Of a stretch of 61,748 bases of DNA, positions 2,081 through 29,601 are shown piece by piece. The position numbers and the translations under genes were made by a program. Source of the DNA: an uncultured Acidimicrobiales bacterium (GTDB lineage Bacteria; Actinomycetota; Acidimicrobiia; Acidimicrobiales; Hopanoidiivorantaceae); assembly GCA_964514465.1 (NCBI GenBank), contig CAZERQ010000192.1, positions 1-61,748 of the forward strand, written 5' to 3'. The notes beneath the pieces were generated by a model, which saw only the letters and a list, made by a program, of their open reading frames with translations, was not told where the DNA came from and made no database searches. Each line of letters opens with the position of its first letter. The stretch's first letter is position 1.

Positions 2081-2084
2081 TCTG

Positions 2085-5000
2085 ATGTTTGAGGGAAATG
2101 TGCAGTGCTGCTCAAGAGTTGCTGGCTGGGTGTGGGCAGGCGCGATATTCATCGCAGGGGTTCTGGCAGTGTTATTTTGGCTGGGATTTGGTGTTGGTTC
2201 TGCCTCAGCTCAGGAACAAACAGGTGAGCCTGATGTTGCCACCACGTTTATTCCTGAAATTACAATTACCGTGCCCCAAGTGGATATCAATGGAGATGGA
2301 ATAAATGATTTCAGTGGCACATTTTTTAGACATAGGATTATGGTAGCGCAAGATTCTGATGCTGGCTGTGGCGGGCTTCTTCATGGTGAGCGTTTTTCTT
2401 CGCTCAGTTGGTCGCTCAAAGTGGTGCCCAGCGGTTTGGTCGAATCTCATGGTCTCAATTGGCGCCAAAGTTTAATTGGTCGTCCTGCTGGGGTGGAGAA
2501 GGAGTGTATTTATGAAATTAGATGGCCGACTTTTCAAGCAGGTGAAGCAGTTATGGTGCGACGGTCTGGTCCTGTTGCGACGGTAAGCTATTCTAATAGG
2601 GTGGTTAGTGCAGATTATGTGGCTGGGACTGTTGCGTCGTTTAGTCCCGAAGTTAATATTTCAGTGCCTGATGTTGATACCAATGGTGATGGTGTGAATG
2701 ATTTTTCTGGCACAAATTTTGAGGTGTTTTTCCGCCGGTTGGCCGGCTCCAACTCTGCTTGCTCCCATAGTGAGTACGGAATGTATACAGTTCAAAGTGA
2801 TGGCAGTGTGGCCGTGCATGGTGAGGCGCCTGTGCTGGTGGATCGTACAGTTGAAATGTCTTCAGAAGGATGTTCATACAGTGTAAGATGGCCGACGGTG
2901 GTTGGTTTCGTTCTCCAGCCCGGTGCCAGCGATGCAGTGAACTACACCGCCAGGAGCATCTCTGCTTCTTATGCATCTGGTACGGTACTATCGTTTAGTC
3001 CCGAAGTTAACATCTCAGTGCCTGAAGTCGATGTTGACAACGATGGAGTGAATGATTTATCTGGGACAGAGTTTGTCATAAAGTTTGATGGATCAGGTTC
3101 AATCGCAGATGGCTGCTATTCTTTTGCGAACGCGACTTATGTTGTGCAGGATAGTGGGGCAGTTGAAGTGTCTGGCGAAGTGCCTGTGCTGGCATTCAAA
3201 ACAGTGGGCGAAGACTGGCATTGTAGCTATGAATTGACTTGGCCGACTGTTCCTGGTTTGGTGCGGAAATCTGGCTACACGACTGAGGTGACAAGTGAAC
3301 GTTATGGTCGTTACTCAAGTATTGCGTCTGCAAGTTATGTGGCTGGTTCTGTGGTTTGGTTTAGTCCAGATGTTGACATTTCGGTGCCCAATTTGGATGC
3401 AGATGGCAACAGTGAGAACGACTTTGCAGGGACTCAGTTTTTGGTGCAATTTAGGCGATCACCAAAATCTGGAGCTGAATGCACTGCCTTTGCAGGCGGG
3501 ACTTACGTGGTGCAAAATAGCGGTGATGTAACTGTATCTGGCGATGAACCTGTCTTAGTGGATCGCTCAATAGGGATGAGTGCACTGTGGTGTGAGTATA
3601 ATGTGTCGTGGCCGACTGTTGCTGGTTTAGTATTGGATATACATGAGCGAAAAATTGTGGGCTTTAGTTCTCTAAATTCACTTGGGTTCCCGAGACCAGC
3701 CTCTGTGGCTTCTGCTAACTACAGAGCGGGAGATGTTATTTCGTTTAGCCCTGATGTCAATATTTCGGTGCCTGCTTGGGATGCCAACAACGATGGTGCG
3801 AATGACTTAGCCGGCACACTATTTGCTGTTGAGTTTAGACGTGCTTTCGGCCATGGTGATCGGTGCACATTATCTGCGAACGGGGTTTATGTTGTGCAGG
3901 ACAATGGTGAGGTTGTGGTGTCGGGAGCAGAGCCTGTCTTGGTGGATCGCACAGTTGGAGAGACTGAAGGGTGTGAGTACGAAGTGATTTGGCCCAATAT
4001 TGGGGGTTTGGAACACTATTATATTTGGCAGCCAAACACGACACGTGTGCATGCGGCTAGAAAAACAGTTTCCATCAGATATAATTTATCAACAAGAACA
4101 ATATTTTTTCCTAGAATAACGATTACAGTTCCACGAACAGATGCTGATAGTGATGGAACAAATGATTTTTCGGGGACTCGATTTGTGGTGGAGTTCAGTC
4201 CAGCGACTGGTTCGCCCAGTGGCTGTTCGGGTTCGCAAGAAAATCATTTAAGTGGAAGTTATACGGTCCAAGATAGCGGGTTGGTAACTAGGGATCAAAC
4301 TGGGTCTGGCTGGCTAAATTCTGGTACTGGTTGGATGGTGGACCGTCCGGGGGGGTTGACATCCAGGTGTTCATATGATGTTATGTGGCCGACAGTTGAA
4401 GGTTTGGCGCGCCAATCTGGTGCCACAATGATTCTAAAAGCTGCAGGCAGGGAAATTTCAGCAGTTTATGTTGCTGGGTCAGAATCTACTTCCTTGGTTG
4501 AAGAGTTGGAAGAGCAAACTTCAAGCTCTAGTGATGCTACAGTTGCATCAAGTTTTAGTCCCATTGTGGAAATAAATATTCCATGGTTGGACGCAGACAA
4601 TAACAATGTAAGCGACTTTTCTGGCACTCAGTTTATGGTTTCGTTTAAGCGGGTGTTTGGTACCAATGCTGTGTGCACCGATTCTTTGAATGGAATTTAT
4701 GTGGTGCAAGATGACGGTGATGTGATGGTGGCTGGCACGGACCCGATCTTGGTGGACCGCCCAGTTGGTGTTACTACAAATTGCATTTATGTGGTTGGGT
4801 GGCCTGCGGTGGAAGGTTTGATATATTCACATACAATTTTTTCCGCATCTTCGGTGAATGCTTTCTCAAAAACTGCAAGGGCCACTTACCAATCTACTGT
4901 GGACACGACGTTTAGCCCAATTGTTAATATCATGGTCCCACAAGTAGATGCTGACAGTGATGGGGAAAATGATTTCGCTGGAACTCAGTTTGTGGTGAAA

Positions 5001-8000
5001 TATACACTTACCATTAATAGCAATTGGCGTTGCGGCAACAGTGCGCTAACAGGGACTTATGTGGTCAGAGATAATGGTCAAGTTACGGTGTTAGCTGCTG
5101 AACCAGTGTTAATCAACCGCCCAGCTAGGCAGCATAGCGATTGCGAATATAATTTAACCTGGCCAGTTGCGCCTGGTCTAGAACTCCAAATAGGTGCTTC
5201 AACTTCAGTGAGTGCATCCAACAGGGCCATTTCTGCAAGTTATGTGGCATATGTGGCACCGGCCACAACATTTAGTCCTAAAGTGGTCATTACAGTTCCG
5301 CAATTGGATGCTGGAAACGGTGGAGTCAATGATTTTTCTGGCATCAGGTTTGTTGTATTGTTCAGGCGTGTGTTTGGTACTAGCGCAGAATGCACAAACT
5401 CCGCGAGTGCGACATATGAGGTTCAAAATAGCGGTGATGTGTCTGAGACCAGCGCAGCTGTGCTGGTGGATCGTCCTGCCGGGTTGGCCTTAAGCTGCAT
5501 CTATGCTGTGACATGGCCTAGTTTTGTTACTTTGGTGCCACTATCTGGAGCCACCACTTCGGTAAGCGCTTCTGCTAGAACTGTTTCGGCTAGCTATGGG
5601 GCGCTGTTAAATTACGACAGTTTTTTTCCGACTGCCATCATTTCTGTGCCTCAGATAGATGCAAATGCTGATGATGCCAATGATTTTGCGGGCACTGAAA
5701 TTCCAATATCTTTCTCTCCCACAGCTTTGTCCCACCGAGAATGTGGTTATACCTCGAATTATATTGTTGGGTTTCAAATTCCGACAGGAAAATATGTGGT
5801 CAAAGAAAGCGGCACAGTGGCAGTTGTCAGTGCACATGTGCGTCATGACCTGGTGAGTTATGTCACCGGGGCAAGTTCTATTTGTGTGTATGATGTAATC
5901 TGGCCCGACGTGGCTGGCTTAGTATTGCAGCCTGATGCCACAGCCACAGTGAGCTACACGGTGGAGACTATCTCTGCCAGTTATGTGGCCGCCACTGTCA
6001 CAACGTTTAGCCCCACTGTGAACATTTCAGTTCCGCAAACGGATGCTGGAGGGGATGGTGTGAACGATTTTGCGGGAACAAGTGTTGCTGTGACGTTCAG
6101 TCGCGTATCTGACTCCAGTTCTGATTGCTCTGCTTCAGTGAGCGGGGTTTATGTTGTGCAAAACAATGGGGATGTGGAGTTAACTGGAACGGCACCCATG
6201 TTAGTGGATTATCCGGCCAGGTCGGCGGATGGTTGTGTTTATGATGTGGCATGGCCAGATGTGACTGGTTGGGACATTCAACCTGGGGCATCCAACACTG
6301 TGCAAGGTTCTGCCAGAATTGTTTCTGCTGGCTTTGCGGTTTCTGAGGAGACTGCTGCCACCACGTTTAGCCCGATGGAAGATATCACGGTTCCCCAGTT
6401 AGATGCTGATGGAGATGGCGTGAATGATTTTTCTGGAGTTAAGTTTCAGGTGGGATTTGCTCAAAATTGGCAATTGAGTGGTGGGTCAGGCCATTGTTCA
6501 GATACCATAGTGAAAACGTATGTAGTGCAGGACAGTGGTGATGTGGTGGTTTCGGGTACTAAACCTGTATTGATTGATCGCTCGGCAGGAGCAACTTTAG
6601 GCTGTGTCTACAATGTGGTATTATTGGCACCTGATGGCTTAACTCGTCCAAACCTTTATCCATTTAGTTTTTTGAGTGCTGCGAACAGGACTCTTTCGGT
6701 GCATTTTCTTGCGACTCCTGCATCGACATTCATCGCAGATGTGTCTATTTCAGTTCCGCAGACTGATGCCAATGGGGACGGTAACAATGATTTTTCTGGC
6801 ACCAGATTTGAAGTGACGTTCAGGCGTGTTTTCGGATCAAATGTGGGATGCACAGATTCTGCGAGCGGGACCTATGTCGTCAGAGACAACGGCGTCGTGA
6901 CGGTGGCTGGCGCAGAACTAGTTTTGGTTAATCGCCCGGTTGGTGGAATAGTGAGGAAGTGCGAGTATGCGGTTGTTTGGCCGACAATTGCTGGGTTTAC
7001 TCGTAAGCCTGGTTCCACCACAACGGTTTCTTCCTGGTTGTCCTATGTCAACTCTGTAGTGGCAGCTGACAAGACTGCTTCAGCATCGTATGAAGCAACT
7101 GATCCTGTGGTTGACACTGCTGCCACTTCGTTTAGCCCGACTGTTGATATTTCGGTTCCGCAGCTGGACGCCGATGGTGATGGTGTGAATGATTTTGCGG
7201 GGACTGGGTTTGTGGTGACGTTTAGGCGTGTGTTTGGTTCTGATGTTGGTTGCACGAGTTCGGCTAGTCGCACCTATGTTGTGCAGAATGACGGCACGGT
7301 GTCGGGGGCAGATTTGTCTTTGGTGGATCGCCCTGCTGGCGTGAGCTCTGGGTGTTCGTATGCTATAACTTGGCCTTCTGTTGCTGGTTTGGTGCGCCAG
7401 ACCGGGGCGACCTCGAGGGTGAGCGCATCAACGAAATCTGCTTCTGCAAGTTACAGTGCGATTGCTGCAACTTCGTTTACGCCTGATGTGGTGATTTCGG
7501 TTCCGCGGTTGGATGCTGACAGGGATGGTGTGAATGACTTCTCTGGCAGGCGTTTTGTGGTGACGTTTAGGCGGGTGTTTGGCTCTGATGCTGGTTGCAC
7601 GAGTTTGTCCAGCCGCACCTATGTTGTGCGGAGTGACGGCACGGTGTCCGGGGCCGGCCCGTCTTTGGTGGATCGCCCTGCGGGTAGTACCACGGGTTGC
7701 ATCTATGTTGTGGGTTGGCCGGCTGTGACTGATTTGGTGCGCCAATCCGGTGCCACCGCTACGGTGAGCGCGTCGGCCAGGTCCGCTGCGGCGACATATC
7801 AGACCGGCTCTACCTATGTTGCGCCTGTGCCTGCAGCGGAGGAACCTGAAGTTGAGGAGCCAGAGGTCGGGGAGCCTGAGACTGAGGAACCCGAGCCAGA
7901 GTCGCAGGAGCCTGCCCCCGCGGAGCCTACCCCGGGGGTTGAGGAGCCAGTGGTTGAGCAGGCGCAGAGTCCGGTCGCGGTCGGTTCGGCAGGTGGTGGC

Positions 8001-8699
8001 GCAGTTGGCGGAGGCGGTAATGCTGGCACCGCAAACGCTGGTGTCGGGGCATCTGGTGGCGGCGTGAATGCCGGAATTGGATCTGGCTCCGGTACTGTGG
8101 CCGATTCGGGCGTGGGTGTGTCTGGTTCGGTTCCGGGTGCGCCCGTGCCCGAAGTCGGTGTGATTCAGTTGTCGCGGGGTTGGGTGATGTTGCCGTTCAA
8201 TGGGCCGTCAGGGATGACGCCGGCTGATTTCGCCTCGGCATTGGAGGGCGCGATCAATAGTGTGTGGGTTTGGGATCTGTCTGCTCAGCAGTGGCAGGGC
8301 TGGACAGCCAGCCGGGGTTCCTTTGGTTTGACGGGTTTGGTGCCTGGTGATGTGGTGATGGTTTATGCGCCTGCTGGCGGGACGGTGGTGTATAGCCCGG
8401 CTGACCTGTTGGGCCACCGGGTTGGTGTGAACAGCTGGACTTTGGCGCCGACCGGGATTTCGCTGGTGGTCTATGGCGGCGGCACTGCAACCTCGGCTTC
8501 TGATGTGTTTGCTAGCTATGCGAATTCTGCTGTGGTGGTGTATCTGTGGGACAGCCAGAACCAGCGCTGGGAGTATCACCTGCCCGGCCGCCAGCCGCTG
8601 TCGTCTGTTCAGGTGCCGTGGTTCTCAGACATCAACCCGGGCGATGCCATGTTCGTCTATAACATCTCACCCACAGCGGTCACCATCCCCTGGGAGTAG
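2085..8699 (+). CDS. Giant secreted tandem-repeat protein: signal peptide, 15 repeats of ~115-125 aa with DxDxDG-like loop and Cys pair, Pro/Glu-rich and Gly-rich linker, Trp-rich C-terminal double module
   Basis: One uninterrupted 6.6 kb ORF. The N-terminus is WVWAGAIFIAGVLAVLFWLGFGVGSASA|QEQ, signal-peptide-like. The motif FSPxVxISVPQxDAxGDGVNDFAGTxFxVxFRRVFGSxxxCTxSASxTYVVQxxGxV....LVDRPxGxxxxCxYxVxWPxVxGL recurs 15 times. Start is ambiguous: ATG 2085, GTG 2100 preceded by GAGGGA, or the listed GTG 2043, which overlaps the upstream gene. Confidence 0.85.
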   Translation: MFEGNVQCCSRVAGWVWAGAIFIAGVLAVLFWLGFGVGSASAQEQTGEPDVATTFIPEITITVPQVDINGDGINDFSGTFFRHRIMVAQDSDAGCGGLLHGERFSSLSWSLKVVPSGLVESHGLNWRQSLIGRPAGVEKECIYEIRWPTFQAGEAVMVRRSGPVATVSYSNRVVSADYVAGTVASFSPEVNISVPDVDTNGDGVNDFSGTNFEVFFRRLAGSNSACSHSEYGMYTVQSDGSVAVHGEAPVLVDRTVEMSSEGCSYSVRWPTVVGFVLQPGASDAVNYTARSISASYASGTVLSFSPEVNISVPEVDVDNDGVNDLSGTEFVIKFDGSGSIADGCYSFANATYVVQDSGAVEVSGEVPVLAFKTVGEDWHCSYELTWPTVPGLVRKSGYTTEVTSERYGRYSSIASASYVAGSVVWFSPDVDISVPNLDADGNSENDFAGTQFLVQFRRSPKSGAECTAFAGGTYVVQNSGDVTVSGDEPVLVDRSIGMSALWCEYNVSWPTVAGLVLDIHERKIVGFSSLNSLGFPRPASVASANYRAGDVISFSPDVNISVPAWDANNDGANDLAGTLFAVEFRRAFGHGDRCTLSANGVYVVQDNGEVVVSGAEPVLVDRTVGETEGCEYEVIWPNIGGLEHYYIWQPNTTRVHAARKTVSIRYNLSTRTIFFPRITITVPRTDADSDGTNDFSGTRFVVEFSPATGSPSGCSGSQENHLSGSYTVQDSGLVTRDQTGSGWLNSGTGWMVDRPGGLTSRCSYDVMWPTVEGLARQSGATMILKAAGREISAVYVAGSESTSLVEELEEQTSSSSDATVASSFSPIVEINIPWLDADNNNVSDFSGTQFMVSFKRVFGTNAVCTDSLNGIYVVQDDGDVMVAGTDPILVDRPVGVTTNCIYVVGWPAVEGLIYSHTIFSASSVNAFSKTARATYQSTVDTTFSPIVNIMVPQVDADSDGENDFAGTQFVVKYTLTINSNWRCGNSALTGTYVVRDNGQVTVLAAEPVLINRPARQHSDCEYNLTWPVAPGLELQIGASTSVSASNRAISASYVAYVAPATTFSPKVVITVPQLDAGNGGVNDFSGIRFVVLFRRVFGTSAECTNSASATYEVQNSGDVSETSAAVLVDRPAGLALSCIYAVTWPSFVTLVPLSGATTSVSASARTVSASYGALLNYDSFFPTAIISVPQIDANADDANDFAGTEIPISFSPTALSHRECGYTSNYIVGFQIPTGKYVVKESGTVAVVSAHVRHDLVSYVTGASSICVYDVIWPDVAGLVLQPDATATVSYTVETISASYVAATVTTFSPTVNISVPQTDAGGDGVNDFAGTSVAVTFSRVSDSSSDCSASVSGVYVVQNNGDVELTGTAPMLVDYPARSADGCVYDVAWPDVTGWDIQPGASNTVQGSARIVSAGFAVSEETAATTFSPMEDITVPQLDADGDGVNDFSGVKFQVGFAQNWQLSGGSGHCSDTIVKTYVVQDSGDVVVSGTKPVLIDRSAGATLGCVYNVVLLAPDGLTRPNLYPFSFLSAANRTLSVHFLATPASTFIADVSISVPQTDANGDGNNDFSGTRFEVTFRRVFGSNVGCTDSASGTYVVRDNGVVTVAGAELVLVNRPVGGIVRKCEYAVVWPTIAGFTRKPGSTTTVSSWLSYVNSVVAADKTASASYEATDPVVDTAATSFSPTVDISVPQLDADGDGVNDFAGTGFVVTFRRVFGSDVGCTSSASRTYVVQNDGTVSGADLSLVDRPAGVSSGCSYAITWPSVAGLVRQTGATSRVSASTKSASASYSAIAATSFTPDVVISVPRLDADRDGVNDFSGRRFVVTFRRVFGSDAGCTSLSSRTYVVRSDGTVSGAGPSLVDRPAGSTTGCIYVVGWPAVTDLVRQSGATATVSASARSAAATYQTGSTYVAPVPAAEEPEVEEPEVGEPETEEPEPESQEPAPAEPTPGVEEPVVEQAQSPVAVGSAGGGAVGGGGNAGTANAGVGASGGGVNAGIGSGSGTVADSGVGVSGSVPGAPVPEVGVIQLSRGWVMLPFNGPSGMTPADFASALEGAINSVWVWDLSAQQWQGWTASRGSFGLTGLVPGDVVMVYAPAGGTVVYSPADLLGHRVGVNSWTLAPTGISLVVYGGGTATSASDVFASYANSAVVVYLWDSQNQRWEYHLPGRQPLSSVQVPWFSDINPGDAMFVYNISPTAVTIPWE
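2241..7800 (+). repeat. Array of 15 in-frame coding tandem repeats (period ~345-390 nt)
   Basis: Repeat heads: TTFIPEITITVPQVDINGDGINDFSGT, ASFSPEVNISVPDVDTNGDGVNDFSGT, LSFSPEVNISVPEVDVDNDGVNDLSGT, through TSFSPTVDISVPQLDADGDGVNDFAGT and TSFTPDVVISVPRLDADRDGVNDFSGR. An acidic/Ser-rich spacer (SESTSLVEELEEQTSSSSDATV, ~nt 4480-4560) splits units 1-6 from units 7-15. Confidence 0.9.
7131..7800 (+). repeat. Two most similar adjacent repeat units (units 14 and 15), exact 345-nt offset
   Basis: TTT of FSP at 7131 and of FTP at 7476. Long identical nucleotide runs are shared, e.g. gtggtgacgtttaggcg, ggttgcacgagtt, cgcacctatgttgtgc, gacggcacggtgtc, tctttggtggatcgccctgc. Confidence 0.85.
8160..8699 (+). 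repeat. Dispersed direct repeat, copy A (coding: C-terminal W-rich double module of the giant protein)
   Basis: LSRGWVMLPFNGPSGMTPADFASALEGAINSVWVWDLSAQQWQGW...WEYHLPGRQPLSSVQVPWFSDINPGDAMFVYNISPTAVTIPWE. Pairs with 10063-10602. Confidence 0.85.
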
Positions 8700-13695: not shown

Positions 13696-14845
13696 CCAGG
13701 ACGGGTCGACCCCCGAGATGGCGCCCATGGACGTGCCGGCGCGCCTGGTTCGTCTGCGACAGGCACTGGCCGACCAGCCCTGCGATGCCCTGGTGATCTC
13801 GCACCTGCCGAACATACGCTGGCTCAGCGGCTTCACCGGATCGGCCGGCACAGCCATCGTCACCGACACCGAATGCGTGCTGATCACCGACGGGCGCTAC
13901 AGCTTCCAGGCGCCACGCGAAATCGCCGACGCCAAAGCCGAAGTTGAGGTTCACATATCGGCCAGCGCCAAAGAGCAATCAGCCATGATCGCCGAAGCCC
14001 TCAAAGGCGTGGAGGCTGTCGGGCTGGAGGCCGAGCACATCAGCTGGGCGCGCCAGATTTCGTGGGCCAAGCAGCTGTCGGAGTCTCCAGTGCCAATCGA
14101 GGGACTGGTGGAGGGCCTGCGCCGCCGCAAGGATCCGGGCGAGGTGGCCAGGGTTGCCGCCGCCGCCAGATTGGTGGACGAAGCCATGCGCGAGATATTC
14201 GAACTGCTGTCGCAGCCCGGAGCCAAGCTCGACCTCAGCGAACACGACCTCGCGGCCGAACTGGACTATCGCATCAGGCGCCGGGGAGCCAGCGAGTTGG
14301 CGTTTGAGACCATCGTGGCATCGGGCGAGAACTCGGCGCTGCCGCACGCCCGTCCCAGCCGTCGCCAGATCCGCCCCGGCGAGCTGTTGCTGATTGATGT
14401 GGGCGCGGTCTATGACGGCTATCGCTCCGACATGACCCGGACATTTTCGCTGGAGCAGCCCAGCCAAAAGGAAGCCGAGATTTGGCAGGTCGTGCGGGAG
14501 GCACAGCAGCTGGGAGTCGAAGCGGTGCGCGCCGAGATGTCCGCCGGCGACATCGACCAGGTCTGTCGCCAGAAAATCTCCGAGCGCGGCTGGGGCGACG
14601 ACTTCATGCACAGCACCGGCCACGGCGTGGGCCTGGAGATCCACGAGGCCCCCAGCGTCAGCGCCAAGAGCAAGGACGTCCTGGAGCCGGGCGAGATCAT
14701 CACCGTCGAGCCGGGCATCTATCTGCAGGATCTGGCGGGGGTGCGGCTGGAAGATACGTTGCTGGTTGAGCCAGACGGCTGTCGTCCGCTCACACAGACG
14801 CCCAAGTTCTTGAGCCTGAGCGAGTTCGGCGCCGGTGCCGGATAG
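13688..14845 (+). CDS. Xaa-Pro aminopeptidase/dipeptidase (peptidase M24B)
   Basis: IDVGAVYDGYRSDMTRTF, HSTGHGVGLEIHEAP, EPGIY...GVRLED. Start moved to ATG 13688 (MTSQDG...), which overlaps the aroQ stop. The listed 13634 start lies inside aroQ. Confidence 0.85.
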   Translation: MTSQDGSTPEMAPMDVPARLVRLRQALADQPCDALVISHLPNIRWLSGFTGSAGTAIVTDTECVLITDGRYSFQAPREIADAKAEVEVHISASAKEQSAMIAEALKGVEAVGLEAEHISWARQISWAKQLSESPVPIEGLVEGLRRRKDPGEVARVAAAARLVDEAMREIFELLSQPGAKLDLSEHDLAAELDYRIRRRGASELAFETIVASGENSALPHARPSRRQIRPGELLLIDVGAVYDGYRSDMTRTFSLEQPSQKEAEIWQVVREAQQLGVEAVRAEMSAGDIDQVCRQKISERGWGDDFMHSTGHGVGLEIHEAPSVSAKSKDVLEPGEIITVEPGIYLQDLAGVRLEDTLLVEPDGCRPLTQTPKFLSLSEFGAGAG

Positions 14846-14962
14846 GTTGGGTGCCGGATAGCTTCGCTGCCGGGTAGCCTTAACCAAAGCCCGCACACGC
14901 AGCCCGCGCCTGCAGACCGCGCACTGCGCCCACAAAACCACACAGCACACACCGGAGAAAAA

Positions 14963-15526
14963 ATGCCAGCCATCACCACCAACGACCTCAAAAACGGAAT
15001 GACCCTGAACCTGGAAGGCGACCTGTTCCAGGTGGTCGAGTTCCAGCACGTCAAGCCCGGCAAGGGCAACGCCTTCGTGCGCACCACGCTCAAGAACGCC
15101 CGCACCGGCTCGGTGCTGGATCGCACATTCCGGGCCGGCGAGAAGGTGGAGCGCGCCATCATCGACAAGCGCGAGATGCAGTTTCTCTATCGGGAGGGCG
15201 CCGATTTCGTGTTCATGGACAACCAGAGCTATGAGCAGATGCAGGTCGGCCCTGCGGCGGTGGGCGATGCCGACAAATACATGAAGGAAGGCGATGTGGC
15301 GCACCTGCTGATGTATCAGGGAGAGACGGTGGAGCTGCAGCTGCCGGCGGCGGTGGAGCTGGAGATAACCCACACCGAGCCGGGAGTGCAGGGCGATCGG
15401 GTGTCGGGCGCCACCAAGCCGGCAACGCTGGAGACGGGACTGGTCACGCAGGTGCCGCTGTTCTTGGAGGTGGGCGAAAAAATCAAGGTGGACACCCGCT
15501 CAGGCGACTACATCAGCCGTGCCTGA
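14963..15526 (+). CDS. efp: Elongation factor P
   Basis: [44 protein letters not shown] Shine-Dalgarno upstream. Confidence 0.95.
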
Positions 15527-15534
15527 CCGCCGAT

Positions 15535-17157
15535 ATGTCAGGCACTAGACGACATTCCAGAGAGCTGGCTCTGGCGCTGCTGTATGAAGCCGACAGCAAG
15601 CAGGCCACGCTTTCGGATGTGCTGGCCGGGCAGCTGATGGCGCCGCCCGAGTTTGCCCGAGAGTTGCTTGGCGGAATAGAGGAGAACCTGGATGACATTG
15701 ACGCCAAGATTCAGCGGCACACACAGGGCTGGGACATCGACCGTCTGGCGCGGGTGGATCTGGCGCTGCTGCGGCTGGGGGTGTTCGAGGTGTGCTTTTG
15801 TGATGACACTCCGCACGCGGTGGCCATGGATGAGGTGGTCGAGCTGGCCAAGCAGTATTCCACGGCTGAGTCGTCGCGCTATATTAATGGGGTGCTGGCC
15901 GGCGTGTTGGCCGAGAGCCGTTCGACAACTGACGGTGGCGCGATGACCGACGGCCGTGCGATGACTGCCAGCCGCGCGATGACCGACGGCGGCCTGACGA
16001 CCGACGGCCAACTCGTCCTGCGCGACGGCACCAGTTTCTCCGGCAAACTTTTCGGCGCGGCCAGCCCGACCGGATTCGCCACGGGCGAGGTCGTGTTCAA
16101 CACCTCCATCGTGGGCTACCAGGAGATCATCACCGACCCGTCATATGCCGGCCAGATCATCGCCTTCACCTATCCCCACATCGGCAACTATGGCATCACC
16201 GCCCACGATGACGAAAGCCAGACGCCGGCCTGCCGTGGCATCATCGTGCGCAACTTGACCCTGCGCCCCAGCAACTGGCGCGCCGAAGGCAGCTTGTCCG
16301 AGCAGTTGGCCGCGGCGGGGCTGGCGGCCATAGCCGACATCGACACCCGGAGGTTGACCCGCCACATCCGCCAGTTCGGTTCGATGGTGGGGGCGTTCGG
16401 CGCGCTCACCCAAGCCGAGCTGCTGGAAGCTACCCAAGCCGAGCCGGGCACCGACGGGGTGGATTTGATTTCGCAGGTGACCTGCGCCGAGCCGTATATG
16501 GCAGACGAAGTGTTGGCAGCCGACGGGGCCGCGCCGCCCGGGCAACCTACCGAGACAGGCAAGCCCACCGAGACAGGCGCGCCGCCCGAGCCGCGGCCGT
16601 GGCGGGTGGTGGCCTATGACTTCGGCATCAAGCGCACCATACTGCGACAGCTGGCCAGCTTCGCCGAGGTCGAGGTGGTGCCCGCGTCAACTCCGTATGA
16701 CGAGGTGCTGGCGCGCCAACCCCACGGGGTGTTTTTGTCCAACGGCCCGGGCGACCCCAGATGCAGCCCAAAAGTGTCGCAGAACATCGCCAAGCTGCTT
16801 GGCAAGCTGCCGGTGTTTGGCATTTGTCTGGGGCATCAGATTCTGGCGCAGGCACTGGGAGCCGAGATCGTCAAGCTGCCGTTCGGACATCACGGCGGCA
16901 ACCATCCGGTGGCCAACTGCGCCACGGGCCAAGTGGAGATCACCGCGCAGAACCACAACTTCGCGGTGGCGCATCCGGCCGCGAGCTTTGAGGTTACCCA
17001 CTTGAACCTGAACGACAACACAGTGGAAGGTCTGTGGGCCAAAGATGCGCAGGCCCGGGGAATACAGTATCACCCGGAGGCCGGGCCGGGCCCGCACGAC
17101 AGCCGTTATCTGTTCGGCGAGTTCCGACAGATGATGGAGAGCTTCCACAAGCCCTAA
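15535..17157 (+). CDS. carA: In-frame fusion of NusB (antitermination factor) and CarA (carbamoyl-phosphate synthase small subunit)
   Basis: aa 1-~130 are NusB-like ([12 protein letters not shown]...[17 protein letters not shown]). From ~aa 160 it is CarA ([16 protein letters not shown]...[56 protein letters not shown]). There is no stop codon between the two parts. Confidence 0.85.
15940..16011 (+). repeat. 4 x 18-nt in-frame tandem repeat forming the NusB-CarA linker
   Basis: gcgatgaccgacggccgt / gcgatgactgccagccgc / gcgatgaccgacggcggc / ctgacgaccgacggccaa, encoding [24 protein letters not shown]. Confidence 0.9.
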
Positions 17158-17200
17158 GCCCGCGCCCGCGTCAAGCCGTCACCCCGTCCCACCGCGCAAA

Positions 17201-20434
<3,234 letters not shown>

Positions 20435-20452
20435 GCGCCAGCTAGACGCCAG

Positions 20453-22144
20453 TTAGAACAAGCCGACTATCTCGCCGTCTTCGTCCAGGTCAATGTCAAA
20501 CGCGGCCGGAGCCGAACCCAAACCGGGCATGGTGCGCATGTCGCCGCAGATGGGATACAAAAAGCCCGCCCCGACCGAAGCCCTGACCTCGCGCACCGGC
20601 AGCGTCCAGCCCGTGGGGGCGCCGTTGAGTTTGGGGTCAGACGAAAGCGACAGATGGGTCTTGGCGATGCACACCGGCAGCTTGTCAAAACCGGCCGCGG
20701 TGTAGGTGTCCAACTGGCGCGACGCCGCCGGCGTGTATGACACATCGTCCGCGCCATAGACCTTGGTGGCGACCGCGTGGATCTTGTCTTTCAGCGAGGC
20801 ATCGTCCGGATACAACAGCTCAAAGCTGCTGTCTTCCTGGGCCGCCTCCTCCACGACCTCGGCCAGCCCGGTCGCGCCCGCGCCGCCGTCTGAGAAGTGG
20901 GTGCTGACCGCGCTGCGCACGCCTTCCTCCGCGCAGATCTCGGCGATGGCCGCATGCTCGCTGTCGTGGTCGGTGGGGAAGGCATTGATGGCCACCACGG
21001 GGCTGACGCCATGCAACGCGATGTTTTGGATCTGCTTGCGCAGGTTGGCCGACCCCTCGTGCACCTCGTCTGGATTCTCGGCCAGCATCTCCTCGGGCAG
21101 CGGCCGGCCCGCCACCACGCGGTGCTTGCCCGACTGGCTCTTGAGCGCCCGCACGGTGCACACCAGCACGGCGGCATCGGGCTGCAGACCCGAGACGCGG
21201 CACTTGATGTTGAAGAAGCGCTCGGCTCCCATGTCGGCGCCGAAGCCGGCCTCGGTGATGACATAGTCGCCGCTGTGGATGCCGATCAGGTCGCCCACCA
21301 CCGAAGAGTTGCCGGTGGCGATGTTGCCGAAGGGGCCGGTGTGGACCAGAACGGGGGTCTGCTCCAGGGTCTGCATCAGGTTGGGCTTGAGGGCGTCCTT
21401 GAGGATGACCGCGGCCGAGCCCGCCGCCTTGATGTCTTCGGCCGTAACGGGATCGCCGTCTGGGGTGTAGCCCACCACCACTTGGCCGAGGCGTTGGCGC
21501 ATGTCGGCTTGCGATGTGCTCAGCGCCAGCAGCGCCATGAGCTCGGACGCGGCGGTGATGTCAAAGCCGCTTTGCCGGGGCACCCCGTCCAGGCGAGTCC
21601 CCAGCCCCACCACGATGTTGCGCAGGGCCCGGTCGTTGATGTCGAGCACCCGGCGCCAGGTGATGTTGTGCATGTCCAGGTTGGAGGCGTTGCCGTGATA
21701 GAGGTGGGCGTCGAGCAGGGCGGCGCACATGTTGTGGGCGGCGGTGACCGCATGCATGTCGCCGGTGAGGTGCAAGTTGAGCATCTCCATGGGCACCACC
21801 TGGCTGTGGCCTCCGCCGGCCGCGCCGCCTTTGATGCCAAAGGTCGGGCCCATGGACGGCTGGCGCAAAGTGATCATGGCCGAGCGGTTGATGTGCGAGA
21901 AACCCTGCCCCAGGCCGACGGTGGTGGTGGTCTTGCCTTCGCCGAAAGGGGTGGGGGTGATGGCCGAGACCAGGATGTATTTGGCCCGCGGGCGGTCGGA
22001 CATCTTGTCGATGGCGTCAAGTGAGACCTTGGCGGCGCCTGTGCCGTATGCCTCCAGGCAGTCCTGGGGGATGTTGGCTTTGTCGGCGATCTCAGACAGC
22101 GGGGCGAGCTTGGCCGCCCGGGCGATTTCAAGATCAGATTTCAT
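20453..22144 (-). CDS. fhs: Formate--tetrahydrofolate ligase
   Basis: MKSDLEIARAAKL..., ITPTPFGEGKTTTTVGL, ATGNSSV, LPVCIAKT. Start set at ATG 22144 with GGAGGA 6 nt upstream. The listed 22561 start is an unsupported extension. Confidence 0.92.
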   Translation of the reverse strand: MKSDLEIARAAKLAPLSEIADKANIPQDCLEAYGTGAAKVSLDAIDKMSDRPRAKYILVSAITPTPFGEGKTTTTVGLGQGFSHINRSAMITLRQPSMGPTFGIKGGAAGGGHSQVVPMEMLNLHLTGDMHAVTAAHNMCAALLDAHLYHGNASNLDMHNITWRRVLDINDRALRNIVVGLGTRLDGVPRQSGFDITAASELMALLALSTSQADMRQRLGQVVVGYTPDGDPVTAEDIKAAGSAAVILKDALKPNLMQTLEQTPVLVHTGPFGNIATGNSSVVGDLIGIHSGDYVITEAGFGADMGAERFFNIKCRVSGLQPDAAVLVCTVRALKSQSGKHRVVAGRPLPEEMLAENPDEVHEGSANLRKQIQNIALHGVSPVVAINAFPTDHDSEHAAIAEICAEEGVRSAVSTHFSDGGAGATGLAEVVEEAAQEDSSFELLYPDDASLKDKIHAVATKVYGADDVSYTPAASRQLDTYTAAGFDKLPVCIAKTHLSLSSDPKLNGAPTGWTLPVREVRASVGAGFLYPICGDMRTMPGLGSAPAAFDIDLDEDGEIVGLF

Positions 22145-22316
22145 GGGTGTTCCTCCTGGATGTGTGTGGTTAACTTGTCCAGTTGGCAATTCTAGTGGCT
22201 GGCGCGGACGAGTGCTGGCGCGGACGGGTGCACCGGCGCGGGCGGTGCTGGCGCGGGACGGCTCGGCCACGTTGCGGTTCGGCCACGATGCGCCCACATT
22301 CCTATACGCTGAATTA

Positions 22317-22622
22317 ATGTCTTTATCAAAGTGGCGGGCCGATTGCGACGGCGTGTTCGACAAAGTCAGCCGGCAGCTGGAGCGGCGCGAGCAGTTGTGC
22401 TCCCGGGTGGCAAGCGGCCAGGTTGGGGTGGCCGAGTTGGTGCTGGCGGAGGATCCGGAGCCGCTGGTGTCGGAGACCAAGCTATTGAGTTTGCTGGATT
22501 GCGTGGAGGGGTTGGGCAAGGTGCCGGCGCGCAAGCTGCTGGGCGAAAAGCAGAACCTCAAGGTGGGTCAGTTCTCCCGCCAGGAGCTGCAGCAGTTGAT
22601 GGAAGGGGCCAGTCTTGTCTAG
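22317..22622 (+). CDS. mihF: Integration host factor, actinobacterial type (mIHF-like)
   Basis: ~100 aa, lies immediately upstream of gmk as in other Actinomycetota. SETKLLSLLDCVEGLGKVPARKLL...FSRQELQQL resembles the mIHF helix-hairpin-helix region. It is the in-frame tail of ORF 21729..22622, whose upstream part overlaps fhs. Confidence 0.65.
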   Translation: MSLSKWRADCDGVFDKVSRQLERREQLCSRVASGQVGVAELVLAEDPEPLVSETKLLSLLDCVEGLGKVPARKLLGEKQNLKVGQFSRQELQQLMEGASLV

Positions 22623-26253: not shown

Positions 26254-28089
26254 TTGAACGAGGCAGTCGAACCCCAGGCGGTAAATGTCGCACTCAAGCC
26301 GGCGGGTCTGGGCAAGTCGCTGACCTACTGGCTGCCCGAGTTGCTCATATCTGATCCCCGCTCAGCTGTCATCCAGCGCGGCACGATGGTGCGGGTGCCG
26401 TTGCAGGGCCGACAGGAGCAGGGCTGGGTGGTGGAGCTGGGGGTTGAGCAGCCGGCTGGGGTGAATCTTTTGAACGTGGGGCGAATCTGGGGGCTGGGCC
26501 CGAGCCGGGAGACAATGGATTTGGCCGACTGGGCCGCGTGGCGCTGGCAGGCCAGCCCGTCCGTGTTCTATTCGCTGGCGTCTCCGCCCAGACGGATAAT
26601 CGGCCTGCCCAAGCCGCTTGGCTCGCGCCCGTCCGGCTCACGCCCAACCCATCCAGACGACAGCCAGCCGCTACGCCGACACTTTGCCCAACCCAAAGAG
26701 ACACTTCTGCAGCTGCCTCCCACCGCCGAGAACTGGAGCCTGATCCACACCGCCTTGTCAACCCGAGCGGCGCTGGTGCTGATGCCCGACAAATGGCGCG
26801 CCGAACGGCTGGTTCAGTTCGCCCGCAGTCAGGGCCACGACTGCGTGCTTTGGCCACAGCAATGGGAGGCAGCCGCCGCCGGAGGTTGTTCGGTGATTGG
26901 CCATCGTTCGGCGGTCTTTGCCAGCATGCCCGAGCTGTCGTGTGTGCTGATGCTGGATGAGCACGACGACAACTACAAGGAGAGTTGGCGCAAGAGTGCC
27001 TGGCACGCCCGGGATGTCGCCCGGGAACGTGCGCTGCGCCAGCGGGTTCCGTTTGTGATGACTTCGCCGGTGCCGAGTTTGTGGGCGCAAAAAAGTGCCG
27101 AGCTGGTGGTGTTGTCCGCGCCTTCGCCGACCGCTGCGCCTTCGCCGGCCGCCGCGCCAACTCCGACCGCCGCGCCAACTCCGACCACTTCCGGCTGGCC
27201 CAAACTCCTCATCGCCGACCTACGCGAGCGCAGCCACGTGGGTCTGTTCTCCCATGAGCTGACCGCAGCTTTGTCGTCCGCCACCAAAGCCGTCTGCGTG
27301 CTCAACCGGGTCGGCCGGGTGAAGCTGCTGGCCTGCGCCGAGTGCCACAATCTGGCCGCCTGCCAAAAATGCGGCGCCAACATGCAACAGACACAGCCCG
27401 GTGCCCTCCAATGCAGCCGCTGCTTGCACGAAGCCCCACAAAGCTGCCCCAAGTGCCGGAGCAAGAAACTCAAAAACCTGCGTGTCGGGGTGTCCAAAGC
27501 GGCGCAAGATCTCAGCCGGCTGCTGCGCGAACCGGTGGGGGAGCTGACCGCCAAAAACCAGCAGGCGCTGCAGAACAGGGTGATACTGGGAACCACCGCG
27601 GCGCTGCGACAGGTCGGCAAATGCGAGCTGGTGGCGTTTTTGGAATTCGACCAGTTCCTGTTGGCGCCTAACTATCGGGCACAGGAAAAAGCCCTGGGGC
27701 ATCTGGCGCAGGCCGCGACACTGGTGAGCGCCGCCGGCCGGATTTTGTTGCAGACCAGACAGCCCGACAGCCCTGTCATACAAGCCGCCGCCACGGGCGA
27801 CCCCAGAGATTTTTCGGCGGCCGACCTGGCACTGCGGACACAGTTGCGTCTGCCCCCCGCAATGGCGGTCGCGCAACTGAGCGGCCCCGACTGCGTGCCC
27901 TACATCGAGCAGCTGCAAAAGCTGGCGCAGGAAAAACCTGGCTTGGCCGAATTGTCAGCCCGGGGGCCCGACACCGACGGCAACTGGCTGCTCAGCGCGC
28001 CCGACCATGAGATTTTGCTCGAGGCTCTGGAGTCCGTGCCGCGCCAGGATCTGGACCTGCGTCTGTGCGTTGACCCCGCGGACATCTAG
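26254..28089 (+). CDS. priA: Primosomal protein N-prime (PriA) homolog with a degenerate ATPase core
   Basis: VRVPLQGRQEQGWVVEL, IGHRSAVFASMPELSCVLMLDEHDDNYKE, Cys-rich zinc region CAECHNLAACQKCGANM...CSRCLHEAPQSCPKCRSKKL. No GxGKT Walker A is visible. The start is uncertain: TTG 26254 is the first start after the metK stop, and the listed 26032 overlaps metK. Confidence 0.75.
   Translation: MNEAVEPQAVNVALKPAGLGKSLTYWLPELLISDPRSAVIQRGTMVRVPLQGRQEQGWVVELGVEQPAGVNLLNVGRIWGLGPSRETMDLADWAAWRWQASPSVFYSLASPPRRIIGLPKPLGSRPSGSRPTHPDDSQPLRRHFAQPKETLLQLPPTAENWSLIHTALSTRAALVLMPDKWRAERLVQFARSQGHDCVLWPQQWEAAAAGGCSVIGHRSAVFASMPELSCVLMLDEHDDNYKESWRKSAWHARDVARERALRQRVPFVMTSPVPSLWAQKSAELVVLSAPSPTAAPSPAAAPTPTAAPTPTTSGWPKLLIADLRERSHVGLFSHELTAALSSATKAVCVLNRVGRVKLLACAECHNLAACQKCGANMQQTQPGALQCSRCLHEAPQSCPKCRSKKLKNLRVGVSKAAQDLSRLLREPVGELTAKNQQALQNRVILGTTAALRQVGKCELVAFLEFDQFLLAPNYRAQEKALGHLAQAATLVSAAGRILLQTRQPDSPVIQAAATGDPRDFSAADLALRTQLRLPPAMAVAQLSGPDCVPYIEQLQKLAQEKPGLAELSARGPDTDGNWLLSAPDHEILLEALESVPRQDLDLRLCVDPADI
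27118..27189 (+). repeat. 4 x 18-nt in-frame tandem repeat inside priA
   Basis: gcgccttcgccgaccgct / gcgccttcgccggccgcc / gcgccaactccgaccgcc / gcgccaactccgaccact, encoding APSPTA APSPAA APTPTA APTPTT. Confidence 0.9.
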
Positions 28090-28656: not shown

Positions 28657-29601
28657 GTGGGCGGCGGGGGCGTGAGCCAGTTTCCGACTTCGGTTTCCAA
28701 GGTGGCTTTTTTGGGCACCCCGGCGATCGCCGTTCCGTTCCTGGATGCCCTGGCTGAGTCGCCCATTGAAGTGGCGGTTGTGGTTACTGGCCCCGACCGG
28801 CAGCGGGGCAGGGGCAACAAGGTCAGCCCGAGTCCGGTCAAGGCGACGGCCCAAGCCCGCGGTCTGCCGGTTTGCCATGAGGTCTCGGACATTTTGGCAT
28901 ATGAGCCCGATGTGGCCGTGGTGGTGGCGTTCGGACAGCTGATCGGGGCCGAGCTGCTGGAGCGGGTGCCGTTTTGCAACATACACTTTTCGCTGCTGCC
29001 GCGCTGGCGCGGGGCGGCCCCGGTGGAATACGCCATCTTGTCAGGCGATGAGCAGACGGGTGTGTGCCTCATGGCGCTGGAGGAGGGACTGGACTCCGGG
29101 CCGGTATTCGGTTCGGTCGCCACCGATATTGCAGAGGACGAAACCGCCGGTGAGTTGTCTGGCCGGCTGGCGCAGCTGGGTGCCGGCTTGCTGTTGGATA
29201 CGCTCACCGGGGGATTCGGGCTGGCCCAGCCACAGACCGGCGAACCCAGCTGGGCGCCCAAGCTGACGAGTGACGACCGCAAGCTGGTGTGGAGCCGACC
29301 GGCTGAGGAGCTGGCGCGGGTGGTGAGGATAGGTCGGGCTTGGACGACATATGACGACAGACGTTTGATTGTTCATCGGGCGCGGCAAGCGGGCGCGGGC
29401 GCGGACGAACTTGGCGCGGGCGCGGATGAACTTGGCGCGGGCGAGCTGCGCGCCACCAAATCGGCTGTGCTGGTGGGCGCCGGAGATCACAGCGCGCTGG
29501 AACTGCTGGAGGTGCAACCCCAGGGACGCAAGACAATGTCGGCCATTCAGTGGGGCCATGGCCTGCAACCGGGCAGCCCCAGACAGCTAGACATAGGCTA
29601 G
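28657..29601 (+). CDS. fmt: Methionyl-tRNA formyltransferase
   Basis: VAFLGTPAIAVPFL, NIHFSLLPRWRGAAPVEYAI, LEVQPQGRKTMS. Alternative GTG starts at 28657, 28672 and 28702. Confidence 0.9.
   Translation: MGGGGVSQFPTSVSKVAFLGTPAIAVPFLDALAESPIEVAVVVTGPDRQRGRGNKVSPSPVKATAQARGLPVCHEVSDILAYEPDVAVVVAFGQLIGAELLERVPFCNIHFSLLPRWRGAAPVEYAILSGDEQTGVCLMALEEGLDSGPVFGSVATDIAEDETAGELSGRLAQLGAGLLLDTLTGGFGLAQPQTGEPSWAPKLTSDDRKLVWSRPAEELARVVRIGRAWTTYDDRRLIVHRARQAGAGADELGAGADELGAGELRATKSAVLVGAGDHSALELLEVQPQGRKTMSAIQWGHGLQPGSPRQLDIG

Follow-up and report, generated by a model that had tools for sequence, protein, structure and literature searches.

The NusB fold (PF01029) has a well-known C-terminal fusion in RsmB/Sun, where an N-terminal NusB-like domain is joined to a methyltransferase. 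The eukaryotic CAD protein has the order GATase-CPS-DHOase-ATCase, with the glutaminase at the N-terminus and enzymes of the same pathway as its partners. Stand-alone NusB proteins include the one from M. tuberculosis (1EYV) and the one from E. coli, which is seen in the rrn and lambda-N antitermination complexes (6TQN, 5MS0). The locus described here puts NusB and CarA into a single reading frame. It lies in a 61,748-nucleotide stretch of DNA from an uncultured Acidimicrobiales bacterium (contig CAZERQ010000192.1), which was analysed as a whole and is called the window below; coordinates are positions in the window, and all features given are on its + strand. No published account of a NusB–CarA fusion was found in the literature searched, and the architecture has no name in the sources consulted. 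The combination of domains is new, though of an ordinary sort.

The fusion gene is one open reading frame of 540 amino acids, arranged NusB–linker–CarA (15535..17157), recognised by its uninterrupted frame and its Pfam and NCBIfam matches. Its ATG lies 8 nt past the efp stop codon, it has no internal stops, and its TAA is at 17155-17157. A first-pass annotation had described a complete NusB that continues in frame, past no stop codon, into a complete CarA, and this is borne out: the frame is continuous and both parts score above the cut-offs of their family models. The NusB domain (residues 1-130, 15535..15924) matches PF01029 over residues 7-124 with 103 bits (cut-off 23.1) and the nusB equivalog TIGR01951 (NCBIfam) with 117.6 bits (cut-off 88.35). 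With phmmer it matches the solved structures 1EYV (73 bits over residues 5-125), 1TZT, 3R2D, 1EY1 and 3D3B. AlphaFold2 predicts an all-helical domain of seven helices over residues 3-130, with mean pLDDT of 65-93 in 10-residue blocks. An alignment of the fused proteins has 28 invariant NusB columns and conserves the core motif AVA(I/M)DE(A/V)VELAK.YST..S.R(F/Y)(I/V)NGVL. By these matches and by its place, the NusB part is the ortholog of the housekeeping nusB, the gene which follows efp in Actinomycetota.

The CarA part scores 424.6 bits against the CarA equivalog TIGR01368 (cut-off 307.35) and has two domains. The N-terminal one, the CPSase small chain (16012..16395; CPSase_sm_chain, PF00988, 164 bits over residues 160-287), begins at the conserved LVLRDG strand, and the class-I glutamine amidotransferase domain (residues 360-532, 16612..17130) matches PF00117 GATase with 150 bits. 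Residues C431, in the motif GICLGHQ, and H513 and E515, in YHPE, are invariant in 29/29 fused proteins; by comparison with E. coli CarA, we take Cys431/His513/Glu515 to be the catalytic triad. Separating the two domains is a lineage-specific insert which, in the alignment, is missing from P0003 and most other relatives. Within it Tandem Repeats Finder places a second 18-nt tandem repeat of 2.2 copies (16541..16578), with (T/G)KPTET-like units, and residues 331-350 of the insert have pLDDT below 50.

Between NusB and CarA lies a linker of 29 residues (131-159, 15925..16011), marked by predicted disorder and fast divergence. Residues 130-153 have pLDDT below 50 in the AlphaFold2 model and no secondary structure, so they are predicted to be disordered. 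Most of the linker is encoded by an 18-nt tandem repeat, which Tandem Repeats Finder reports at 15938..16009 with 4.0 copies, 75% matches and a score of 88. In frame, the repeat is the four units at 15940-16011 that the first-pass annotation had pointed out, and the three in-frame ATG codons it had counted are at 15943, 15961 and 15979. Tandem repeats in the window as a whole fill 40 rows, with periods that are mainly multiples of three.

The same annotation had proposed that this repeat could have removed the nusB stop codon. That idea is not supported, because the fusion predates the repeat by far: NusB and CarA are also fused, through unrelated linkers, in a further 28 protein clusters with identities as low as 48%. 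Linkers across the fused family are 19-71 aa long, with sequences unrelated to the window's, and come in at least 14 distinct lengths among fused lineages, every one in frame. The AM(T/A)xG(R) units are limited to the three closest clusters (the window, P0002 and P0003), where their copy number varies. Compared with the window linker, that of P0002/L092 is longer by 5 aa (15 nt) and that of P0003/L093 shorter by 6 aa, and both keep the frame. Since relatives without the repeat are equally fused, a repeat-driven origin of the fusion was rejected, and the alignments indicate that the window's repeat is a later expansion within a pre-existing linker.

The junction is a tandem repeat and the metagenomic DNA is GC-rich, so an assembly or sequencing error was considered, in which a collapsed repeat or a missed base would hide a nusB stop. 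Logan contigs from three independent sponge-metagenome runs, with depth 44-77, span 15300-16190 and show the same junction, without any indel and without a collapsed repeat. The single difference in the three runs is 15907 T>C, a silent change of the Leu codon 125 from TTG to CTG. The junction of the L005-type species is also spanned gap-free by independent runs of unknown kind, which was counted as confirmation at the DNA level. The fused architecture recurs in short-read and megabase-scale assemblies of many samples, and both domains are under selection, as described below. An artefact is almost certainly not the explanation, and the contigs of the three independent runs effectively refute it. 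The NusB–CarA fusion is genuine, inherited and reproducible, and not a one-off error.

Upstream of the fusion gene is efp (14963..15526; EFP_N, EFP and Elong-fact-P_C domains), and the efp–nusB order is found in the window and in the examined Actinomycetota loci which have an efp match. Downstream is carB (17201..20434; CPSase_L_D1, D2 and D3 domains), encoding the large CPSase subunit, with which CarA pairs; it starts 43 nt past the fusion stop, and it directly follows the fusion in related loci whose contigs extend beyond the fusion gene. In the other Actinomycetota examined, nusB and carA are separated by pyrR-pyrB-pyrC, as the first-pass annotation had said. Among the best 80 NusB loci, unfused loci with carA within reach have it 3-8 kb downstream of nusB, and in both annotated outgroup loci, L006 and L014, the gap is filled by pyrR, pyrB and pyrC. 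L014 also has pyrD and pyrF after carB. The absence of the three genes here, claimed as well, is confirmed by tblastn, which found no match to PyrR, PyrB or PyrC across the window and five related fused loci. The C-terminal allosteric MGS-like domain of CarB has no match in the window and scores 71 bits in L014. As a separate observation, the departure of all pyr genes from around carAB, together with the degenerate CarB allosteric domain, may mean that de novo pyrimidine synthesis is altered or lost. An Rfam scan of the window gave 0 matches, no rRNA leader or rpsJ was found within it, and a promoter and terminator scan from efp to carB gave nothing above chance.

The 28 further fused clusters are at 89-48% identity and group together on the CarA tree. 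They share the synteny efp–[nusB~carA]–carB, with identical neighbours in L001-L005, L089, L090, L092 and L093. On that tree, the lineages that branch off first within the family (P0029, P0028 and the window's subclade) are all fused, and the sampled clusters at 90% identity are 29 fused vs 6 split. Only L005 is fused among the best 80 NusB loci from 185,579 species-representative genomes; this Candidatus Hopanoidivoransaceae MAG (Acidimicrobiales) is the sole named fused genome. No paper on Hopanoidivorans was found in the literature searched. Taken together, the clusters and their synteny indicate that the fusion is an inherited trait of a sponge- and coral-associated family, Candidatus Hopanoidivoransaceae and relatives.

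To look beyond the family, a query of NusB, linker and CarA N-domain was searched against 1.84 billion representative proteins. No other NusB–CarA fusion lineage was found among them, and only this family's cluster spans both domains. Several candidates were rejected: P0121 is a duplicated CarA fragment, P0147 and P0245 are PyrC–CarA read-throughs, P0133 is a CarA extended at its N-terminus by repeat-rich sequence, and P0206 is a NusB with an acidic tail. The fusion had been called unusual at the outset, and as a matter of distribution it is. As a sign of a special coupled function the word is weakened by the split relatives inside the clade.

In two relatives of the fused lineages, L085/L086 and L087/L088, nusB and carA are separate genes in the same synteny, with stop/start overlaps of 4 nt and 1 nt. 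The overlap reads GTGA or TGATG, and the split-form CarA starts at GTG or ATG to give (M/V)TRPGMLVLRDG. The NusB and CarA of these lineages are 80-90% identical to those of their fused neighbours; the two free NusB proteins share 85% and 80% identity with the fused neighbours' NusB domains, and the split P0030 CarA even shares a 90%-identity cluster with the fused P0313. The L085 NusB tail …EETEREGK* is similar to the first half of fused linkers (…EETLGETEEMAK…), the fused L090 retains in frame the GTG at which L085's CarA starts, followed by an ATG, and the subclade P0009-P0027 keeps a Met directly before LVLRDG.

The direction of change was examined on a neighbour-joining tree of CarA only and in the junctions aligned at the nucleotide level. 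On the tree the split lineages are nested among fused ones: the clades that enclose them have bootstrap values of 98.5% and 100%, and a clade of the fused P0009-P0027 without the split forms has 0%. This nesting implies that the fused and split states interconvert, and it speaks against a special role for coupling the two domains. The direction itself is ambiguous: one fusion with at least two fissions would fit, and so would at least four independent fusions.

Comparing the window, L092 and L093 with each other, dN/dS is 0.07-0.16 in NusB and 0.12-0.14 in CarA, against 0.19-0.36 in the linker, and dN in the linker is 5-9x that of the domains. By these ratios both the NusB and the CarA domain are under purifying selection, and the low value for NusB points to a gene that still works rather than a relic.

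The reading we prefer, and consider probable, is a near-neutral fusion of translationally coupled neighbours after collapse of the pyr operon, with each domain keeping its own job. Comparison of loci suggests that the ancestral Acidimicrobiales order was efp–nusB–pyrR–pyrB–pyrC–carA–carB–pyrD–pyrF. In the ancestor of the family, all pyr genes around carAB would have been removed from the locus, so that nusB came to abut carA, and the fusion most likely arose upon this loss of the pyrimidine genes between them. Two states exist today, one translationally coupled with an overlapping stop and start, the other a single fused frame, and what sets them apart would be an indel that shifts the frame within the NusB tail or the linker. 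The length of the linker would then be about that of the old NusB C-terminal tail (~15 aa in split forms) plus a CarA N-terminal extension (~5 aa). In the window's lineage the linker would later have been enlarged by in-frame tandem duplication of 18 nt.

The frame would be translated as one polypeptide of ~58 kDa, in which the NusB domain presumably continues to act with NusE/S10 on boxA RNA and the CarA domain, the glutaminase subunit of carbamoyl-phosphate synthetase, presumably still docks on CarB. A flexible, disordered linker would allow each domain to enter its own complex. All that the fusion would add is a fixed 1:1 ratio of synthesis, to which the overlapping split form comes close anyway, and a new coupled function would be unneeded. 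The close split relatives suggest that it adds no new function. As a counterpoint, the fused form may prevail among the clusters because selection favours it and not by neutral retention, and a search for RNA runs holding the window's gene found none.

Other accounts of how the fused frame is used were weighed against the preferred one. It may be that the frame is fused and the working proteins are separate, with CarA made by internal initiation at a linker ATG or released by proteolysis of the linker, or, in relatives, initiated at the conserved Met before LVLRDG. The linker of the window does have its three in-frame ATGs, the P0009-P0027 subclade its Met, and L090 the in-frame GTG start of L085; the predicted disorder would make the linker accessible to proteases, and the split relatives show that two proteins suffice. 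The first-pass annotation had suggested that the ATGs could still allow independent CarA initiation. The ATGs are there, although as start sites they are weak: they are part of the repeat unit, and the linkers of P0004, P0006, P0007 and P0008, from the window's own subclade, contain zero Met. They also have no Shine-Dalgarno core 5' of them, which says little here, as only ~10/31 crude gene starts in the window show the motif. The scan found no promoter-like site within the fusion ORF. That at least 14 linker lengths are all in frame is also what would be expected if CarA synthesis needs read-through from nusB. On balance, separately made or released products are unlikely.

It is also conceivable that the fusion is adaptive and physically couples rRNA antitermination to carbamoyl-phosphate supply, for example by sequestering NusB on the large CarAB complex, or releasing it, according to metabolic state. 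The predominance of fused forms and their hold on the earliest branches would fit. So would the locus, from which pyrR and the other pyr genes are gone and where the MGS domain of CarB is degenerate, since these changes imply that regulation of carbamoyl-phosphate synthetase has been rewired. Yet two nested lineages manage unfused with NusB and CarA nearly the same as their neighbours', the linker conserves neither sequence nor length, and the AlphaFold2 model of the fused protein (pTM 0.57) gives no sign of a fixed NusB–CarA arrangement. We regard such coupling as improbable. Slightly less probable still is its more specific form, a functional tether by which sponge symbionts with reduced genomes would couple antitermination of the rRNA operon to the availability of arginine and pyrimidine precursors. 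Such a tether would be a replacement control after the locus had lost PyrR, the pyr genes and the allosteric domain of CarB, and holding NusB on the enzyme complex, or letting it go, would tune ribosome synthesis. If true, antitermination and metabolism would be linked in a way that is new, but the evidence does not favour such a tether.

The main value of the fusion is as a well-documented natural case in which operon decay in a host-associated lineage leads to a composite of functionally unrelated neighbours, with fused and split forms both persisting among close relatives. The gene is a composite of the 'Rosetta-stone' kind in that its components are separate, adjacent and in the same order in L085/L086 and L087/L088. 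'Guilt by fusion' predictors and annotation pipelines would wrongly infer from it a functional link between NusB and CarA. For the biology of sponge symbionts, the context of the locus, with its loss of pyr genes and degeneration of the CarB allosteric domain, is more interesting than the fusion.

Compared with known systems, the NusB part shares with stand-alone NusB the equivalog score, the alignment over the whole domain, the predicted helical fold and the position after efp. It differs in having no stop of its own, with a C-terminus that runs through the linker into CarA. The CarA part is ~60% identical over its entire length to stand-alone Acidimicrobiia CarA (TIGR01368), and has both domains, the Cys-His-Glu residues and carB next to it. 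Stand-alone CarA has a start 4-8 residues before LVL, whereas the window's CarA has none, with Gln there in the window's subclade; the window's CarA also carries the extra disordered insert with the second repeat, and its partner CarB has no recognisable MGS domain. RsmB/Sun resembles the fusion in that the NusB fold tolerates a large C-terminal domain. Membership in that family was rejected (NF011494 gives 37.1 bits vs a cut-off of 319, and there is no methyltransferase domain): the partner here is a glutamine amidotransferase instead of a methyltransferase, and the NusB part is, by its matches, a true nusB ortholog. CAD is similar in holding a CarA-type glutaminase within a longer polypeptide, and different in that the partner in the window is a transcription factor, N-terminal to CarA, while carB stays a separate gene. 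The split nusB/carA loci (L085/L086 and L087/L088) match the window in gene order and neighbours, and differ in that their frames are offset and encode two polypeptides.

The nusB~carA fusion ORF runs on the plus strand from 15535 to 17157, and its 540 codons contain no internal stop. Pfam was used to delimit a NusB domain (residues 7-124), a CPSase small-chain domain (CPSase_sm_chain, residues 160-287) and a class-I glutamine amidotransferase (GATase) domain (residues 360-532), and the protein passes the NCBIfam equivalog models for both nusB (117.6 bits, cut-off 88.35) and CarA (424.6 bits, cut-off 307.35). Pfam, NCBIfam and translation agree with the first-pass annotation, which had read NusB and CarA in one stop-free frame. 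It had also described four 18-nt units with three in-frame ATGs at the junction; Tandem Repeats Finder places this four-copy repeat at 15938-16009, and translating the units in frame gives 24 residues and the same three ATGs. Upstream on the plus strand lie aroB, aroQ, an M24 peptidase gene and efp; downstream, carB on the plus strand is followed by the oppositely oriented formate-tetrahydrofolate ligase gene, fhs. A scan of this region found no promoter-like site or convincing terminator between efp, the fusion and carB. A 16-nt tandem repeat (14833-14878, 2.9 copies), with a period not divisible by three, lies across the end of the M24 peptidase gene and the spacer before efp. The longest fhs ORF (20453-22561, minus strand) is 702 aa long versus 563 aa in all relatives; its first ~139 codons are probably untranslated, with translation most likely beginning at the Met of MKSDLEIARAAKL.

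The window comes from a sponge metagenome, and 97-98% of its words are present in three runs from three samples. Independently built contigs of these runs cover 15300-16190 at a depth of 44-77, with a lone substitution (15907 T>C, TTG to CTG, Leu kept) and no indels in that interval. These contigs reproduce the fused frame, which the first-pass annotation had wanted checked against reads, and an assembly or sequencing artefact such as a collapsed repeat is effectively excluded as the source of the fusion. A fourth run yielded a relative's contig encoding P0002, one of the two nearest fused relatives, with a linker longer by 15 nt and the frame kept. In the species type of L005, a fused locus, contigs from independent runs cross the junction gap-free.

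Searching 5.8 billion protein clusters brought up 28 more proteins that combine NusB, CPSase_sm_chain and GATase in a single chain, 89% down to 48% identical to the window protein at full-length coverage; stand-alone CarA proteins of Acidimicrobiia come next in the ranking. Gene order at the fused loci is constant, (aroE-aroK-aroB-aroQ-pepP)-efp-[nusB~carA]-carB, and several independent assemblies and contigs up to 2.4 Mb agree on it. On this sequence evidence, the fusion is a family trait and not an accident of the window's genome. When NusB, linker and the CarA N-domain were searched against 1.84 billion 50%-identity representatives, only one cluster, that of the window's family, spanned both domains; the next candidates proved on inspection not to be NusB fusions. 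A NusB-domain profile was also run against one genome per species (185,579 species). Among the 80 best NusB loci only L005 was fused, a 2.62-Mb chromosome labelled Candidatus Hopanoidivoransaceae bacterium, a family within Acidimicrobiales whose genera include Hopanoidivorans and Poriferisocius. As far as these searches reach, the fusion occurs only in a single host-associated family of Acidimicrobiales.

In the other best-80 loci with carA in reach, which include Acidimicrobiales, Ilumatobacteraceae, Microthrixaceae, Microbacteriaceae and Mycobacteriales, nusB has its own stop and carA lies 3-8 kb downstream. The gap is filled by pyrR, pyrB and pyrC in the outgroup locus L006, and the outgroup L014 has the complete order nusB-pyrR-pyrB-pyrC-carA-carB-pyrD-pyrF. 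Neither the window nor the fused loci searched gave a match to pyrR, pyrB or pyrC, which bears out an earlier remark that they are absent here; in the gene tables of the family loci, carB is not followed by a gene for OMP decarboxylase or dihydroorotate dehydrogenase. The fusion-family locus thus retains carAB but none of the five pyr genes (window 14963-22561, L001, L003, L085 and L087 versus L014 and L006), which suggests that de novo pyrimidine synthesis was relocated or lost in these symbionts. In most loci an oppositely oriented fhs follows carB directly, and in L003 it comes after two extra genes. The C-terminal MGS-like domain of CarB, whose usual role is allosteric sensing of UMP, IMP and ornithine, scores 71 bits in L014, is sub-threshold in L001 (14560-15165, 12.7 bits) and was undetectable in the carB C-termini of the window (19901-20431) and L085 (14050-14628). 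This domain appears to have degenerated in the fusion family.

The next most similar CarA proteins, P0030-P0035, come from loci that share the synteny but carry nusB and carA separately. In L085 and L086 the two genes overlap by 4 nt (GTGA); in L087 and L088 they overlap by 1 nt in the sequence TGATGA, whose second TGA is also in frame. CarA begins with (M/V)TRPGMLVLRDG in both split groups. In a bootstrapped neighbour-joining tree of CarA, the whole family (P0001-P0035) has 91% support, the subclade of both split groups and fused P0009-P0027 has 100%, and split P0030-33 with fused P0009-20 and P0022-27, without fused P0021, has 98.5%; fused P0009-P0027 without the nested split groups has 0%. 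Identity between a free NusB and the NusB domain of a fused protein is 85% for L085 versus P0015 and 80% for L087 versus P0021, and one 90%-identity cluster contains fused and split proteins together. Nucleotide alignment shows a start codon homologous between the two split forms, and fused L090 still has GTG ATG in frame at that position. From the nesting and the shared junction it follows that fused and split states interconvert via small indels at the overlapping stop and start. There are two possible histories: one ancient fusion and then at least two fissions (three events), or an adjacent ancestor and then at least four fusions. Given GTGA at the junction, the same stop and start positions are predicted under either. 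Comparing relatives, another check proposed at the outset, turned up fused, split and pyr-separated arrangements. A HicB-like antitoxin gene sits between aroB and aroQ in fused and split members of one subclade (L001 6975-7325, L085 6578-6928, L090 2999-3349) and is absent from the window.

In the aligned fused family the NusB and CarA cores are invariant, including CarA Cys431, His513 and Glu515, and the inter-domain segment is hypervariable, with 19-71 residues and at least 14 different lengths. Linkers of different subclades are unrelated in sequence, and several subclades carry private repeats (QVAEN×4 in P0021, for example). The AM(T/A)xG(R) units are confined, in differing copy numbers, to the window and its two nearest fused relatives, P0002 and P0003, so the earlier proposal that the repeat could have removed the nusB stop is not supported; the repeat expanded within a pre-existing linker and is not what created the fusion. 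Tandem Repeats Finder reports 40 rows in the 61.7-kb window, mostly with periods of 12-24 nt (12, 15, 18, 21, 24), multiples of three (for example 27116-27186, 29377-29443, 45963-46015 and 60372-60639). Such in-frame mini-repeats seem habitual in this genome, so the linker repeat does not stand out. P0002, the closest relative, has a NusB N-terminal extension with its own 15-nt repeat (VPEDA×3, L092 5171-5240), another case of repeat growth at disordered ends. A giant 2218-aa ORF (2043-8699, plus strand) has long internal repeats, including a 345-nt tandem repeat at 7118-7771; neither it nor the preceding 667-aa ORF (77-2080) has a Pfam match, and in L003, too, a 2587-aa gene without recognised domains precedes the aro genes. 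These ORFs may code for proteins at the symbiont surface or for host interaction.

Operon collapse, with subsequent fusion of neighbours that were translationally coupled, is the explanation with the best support. The ancestor of this sponge- and coral-associated family would have lost the pyr genes on both sides of carAB from the locus, leaving nusB and carA contiguous. At an overlapping stop and start, a small frame-changing indel could weld or unweld the two frames. In length the linker approximates the former NusB tail (~15 aa in split forms) plus the CarA N-terminal extension (~5 aa), and in-frame tandem duplications lengthened it later.

Selection acts on both domains. For the window against its two closest relatives, dN/dS is 0.07-0.16 for the NusB domain, 0.12-0.14 for CarA and 0.19-0.36 for the linker, whose dN is 5-9 times that of the domains. 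AlphaFold2, given a 29-sequence alignment, predicted a helical NusB domain at residues 3-130, and the entire domain aligns with M. tuberculosis NusB (1EYV) and other solved NusB proteins. Residues 130-153 are predicted to be unstructured (pLDDT <50). A second low-confidence segment, residues 331-350, is a lineage-specific insert between the two CarA domains, predicted disordered, with a second 18-nt repeat (16541-16578, 2.2 copies, (T/G)KPTET-like units); it has a variant form in P0002 and is absent in P0003. We infer that a single 58-kDa protein is made. NusB would act with NusE/boxA and CarA with CarB, each in its own complex; it is chiefly the split relatives that speak for this independence. 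The tether would be close to neutral, although the predominance of fused forms is the chief sign that it might be mildly advantageous. Separate products, through internal initiation or linker cleavage, seem unlikely. No Shine-Dalgarno core precedes the three linker ATGs, but such cores are seldom seen in this genome, so their lack here carries no weight. That the fusion couples antitermination to carbamoyl-phosphate synthesis is less probable still.

No name for the fused proteins was found in the sources matched, and no mention of a NusB-CarA fusion in the literature consulted. The architecture would mislead fusion-based function inference; its main interest is as a clean natural case of toggling between fusion and fission, and as a marker of how the pyr operon has decayed in these symbionts. 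Taken singly, the two halves are ordinary NusB and CarA proteins. The fused protein differs from RsmB-type NusB-domain fusions, scoring far under the NF011494 cut-off, and bears no resemblance to CAD-type CPSase fusions. What is new in NusB-CarA is the domain combination; its kind, the composite protein built from adjacent operon genes, is well known.
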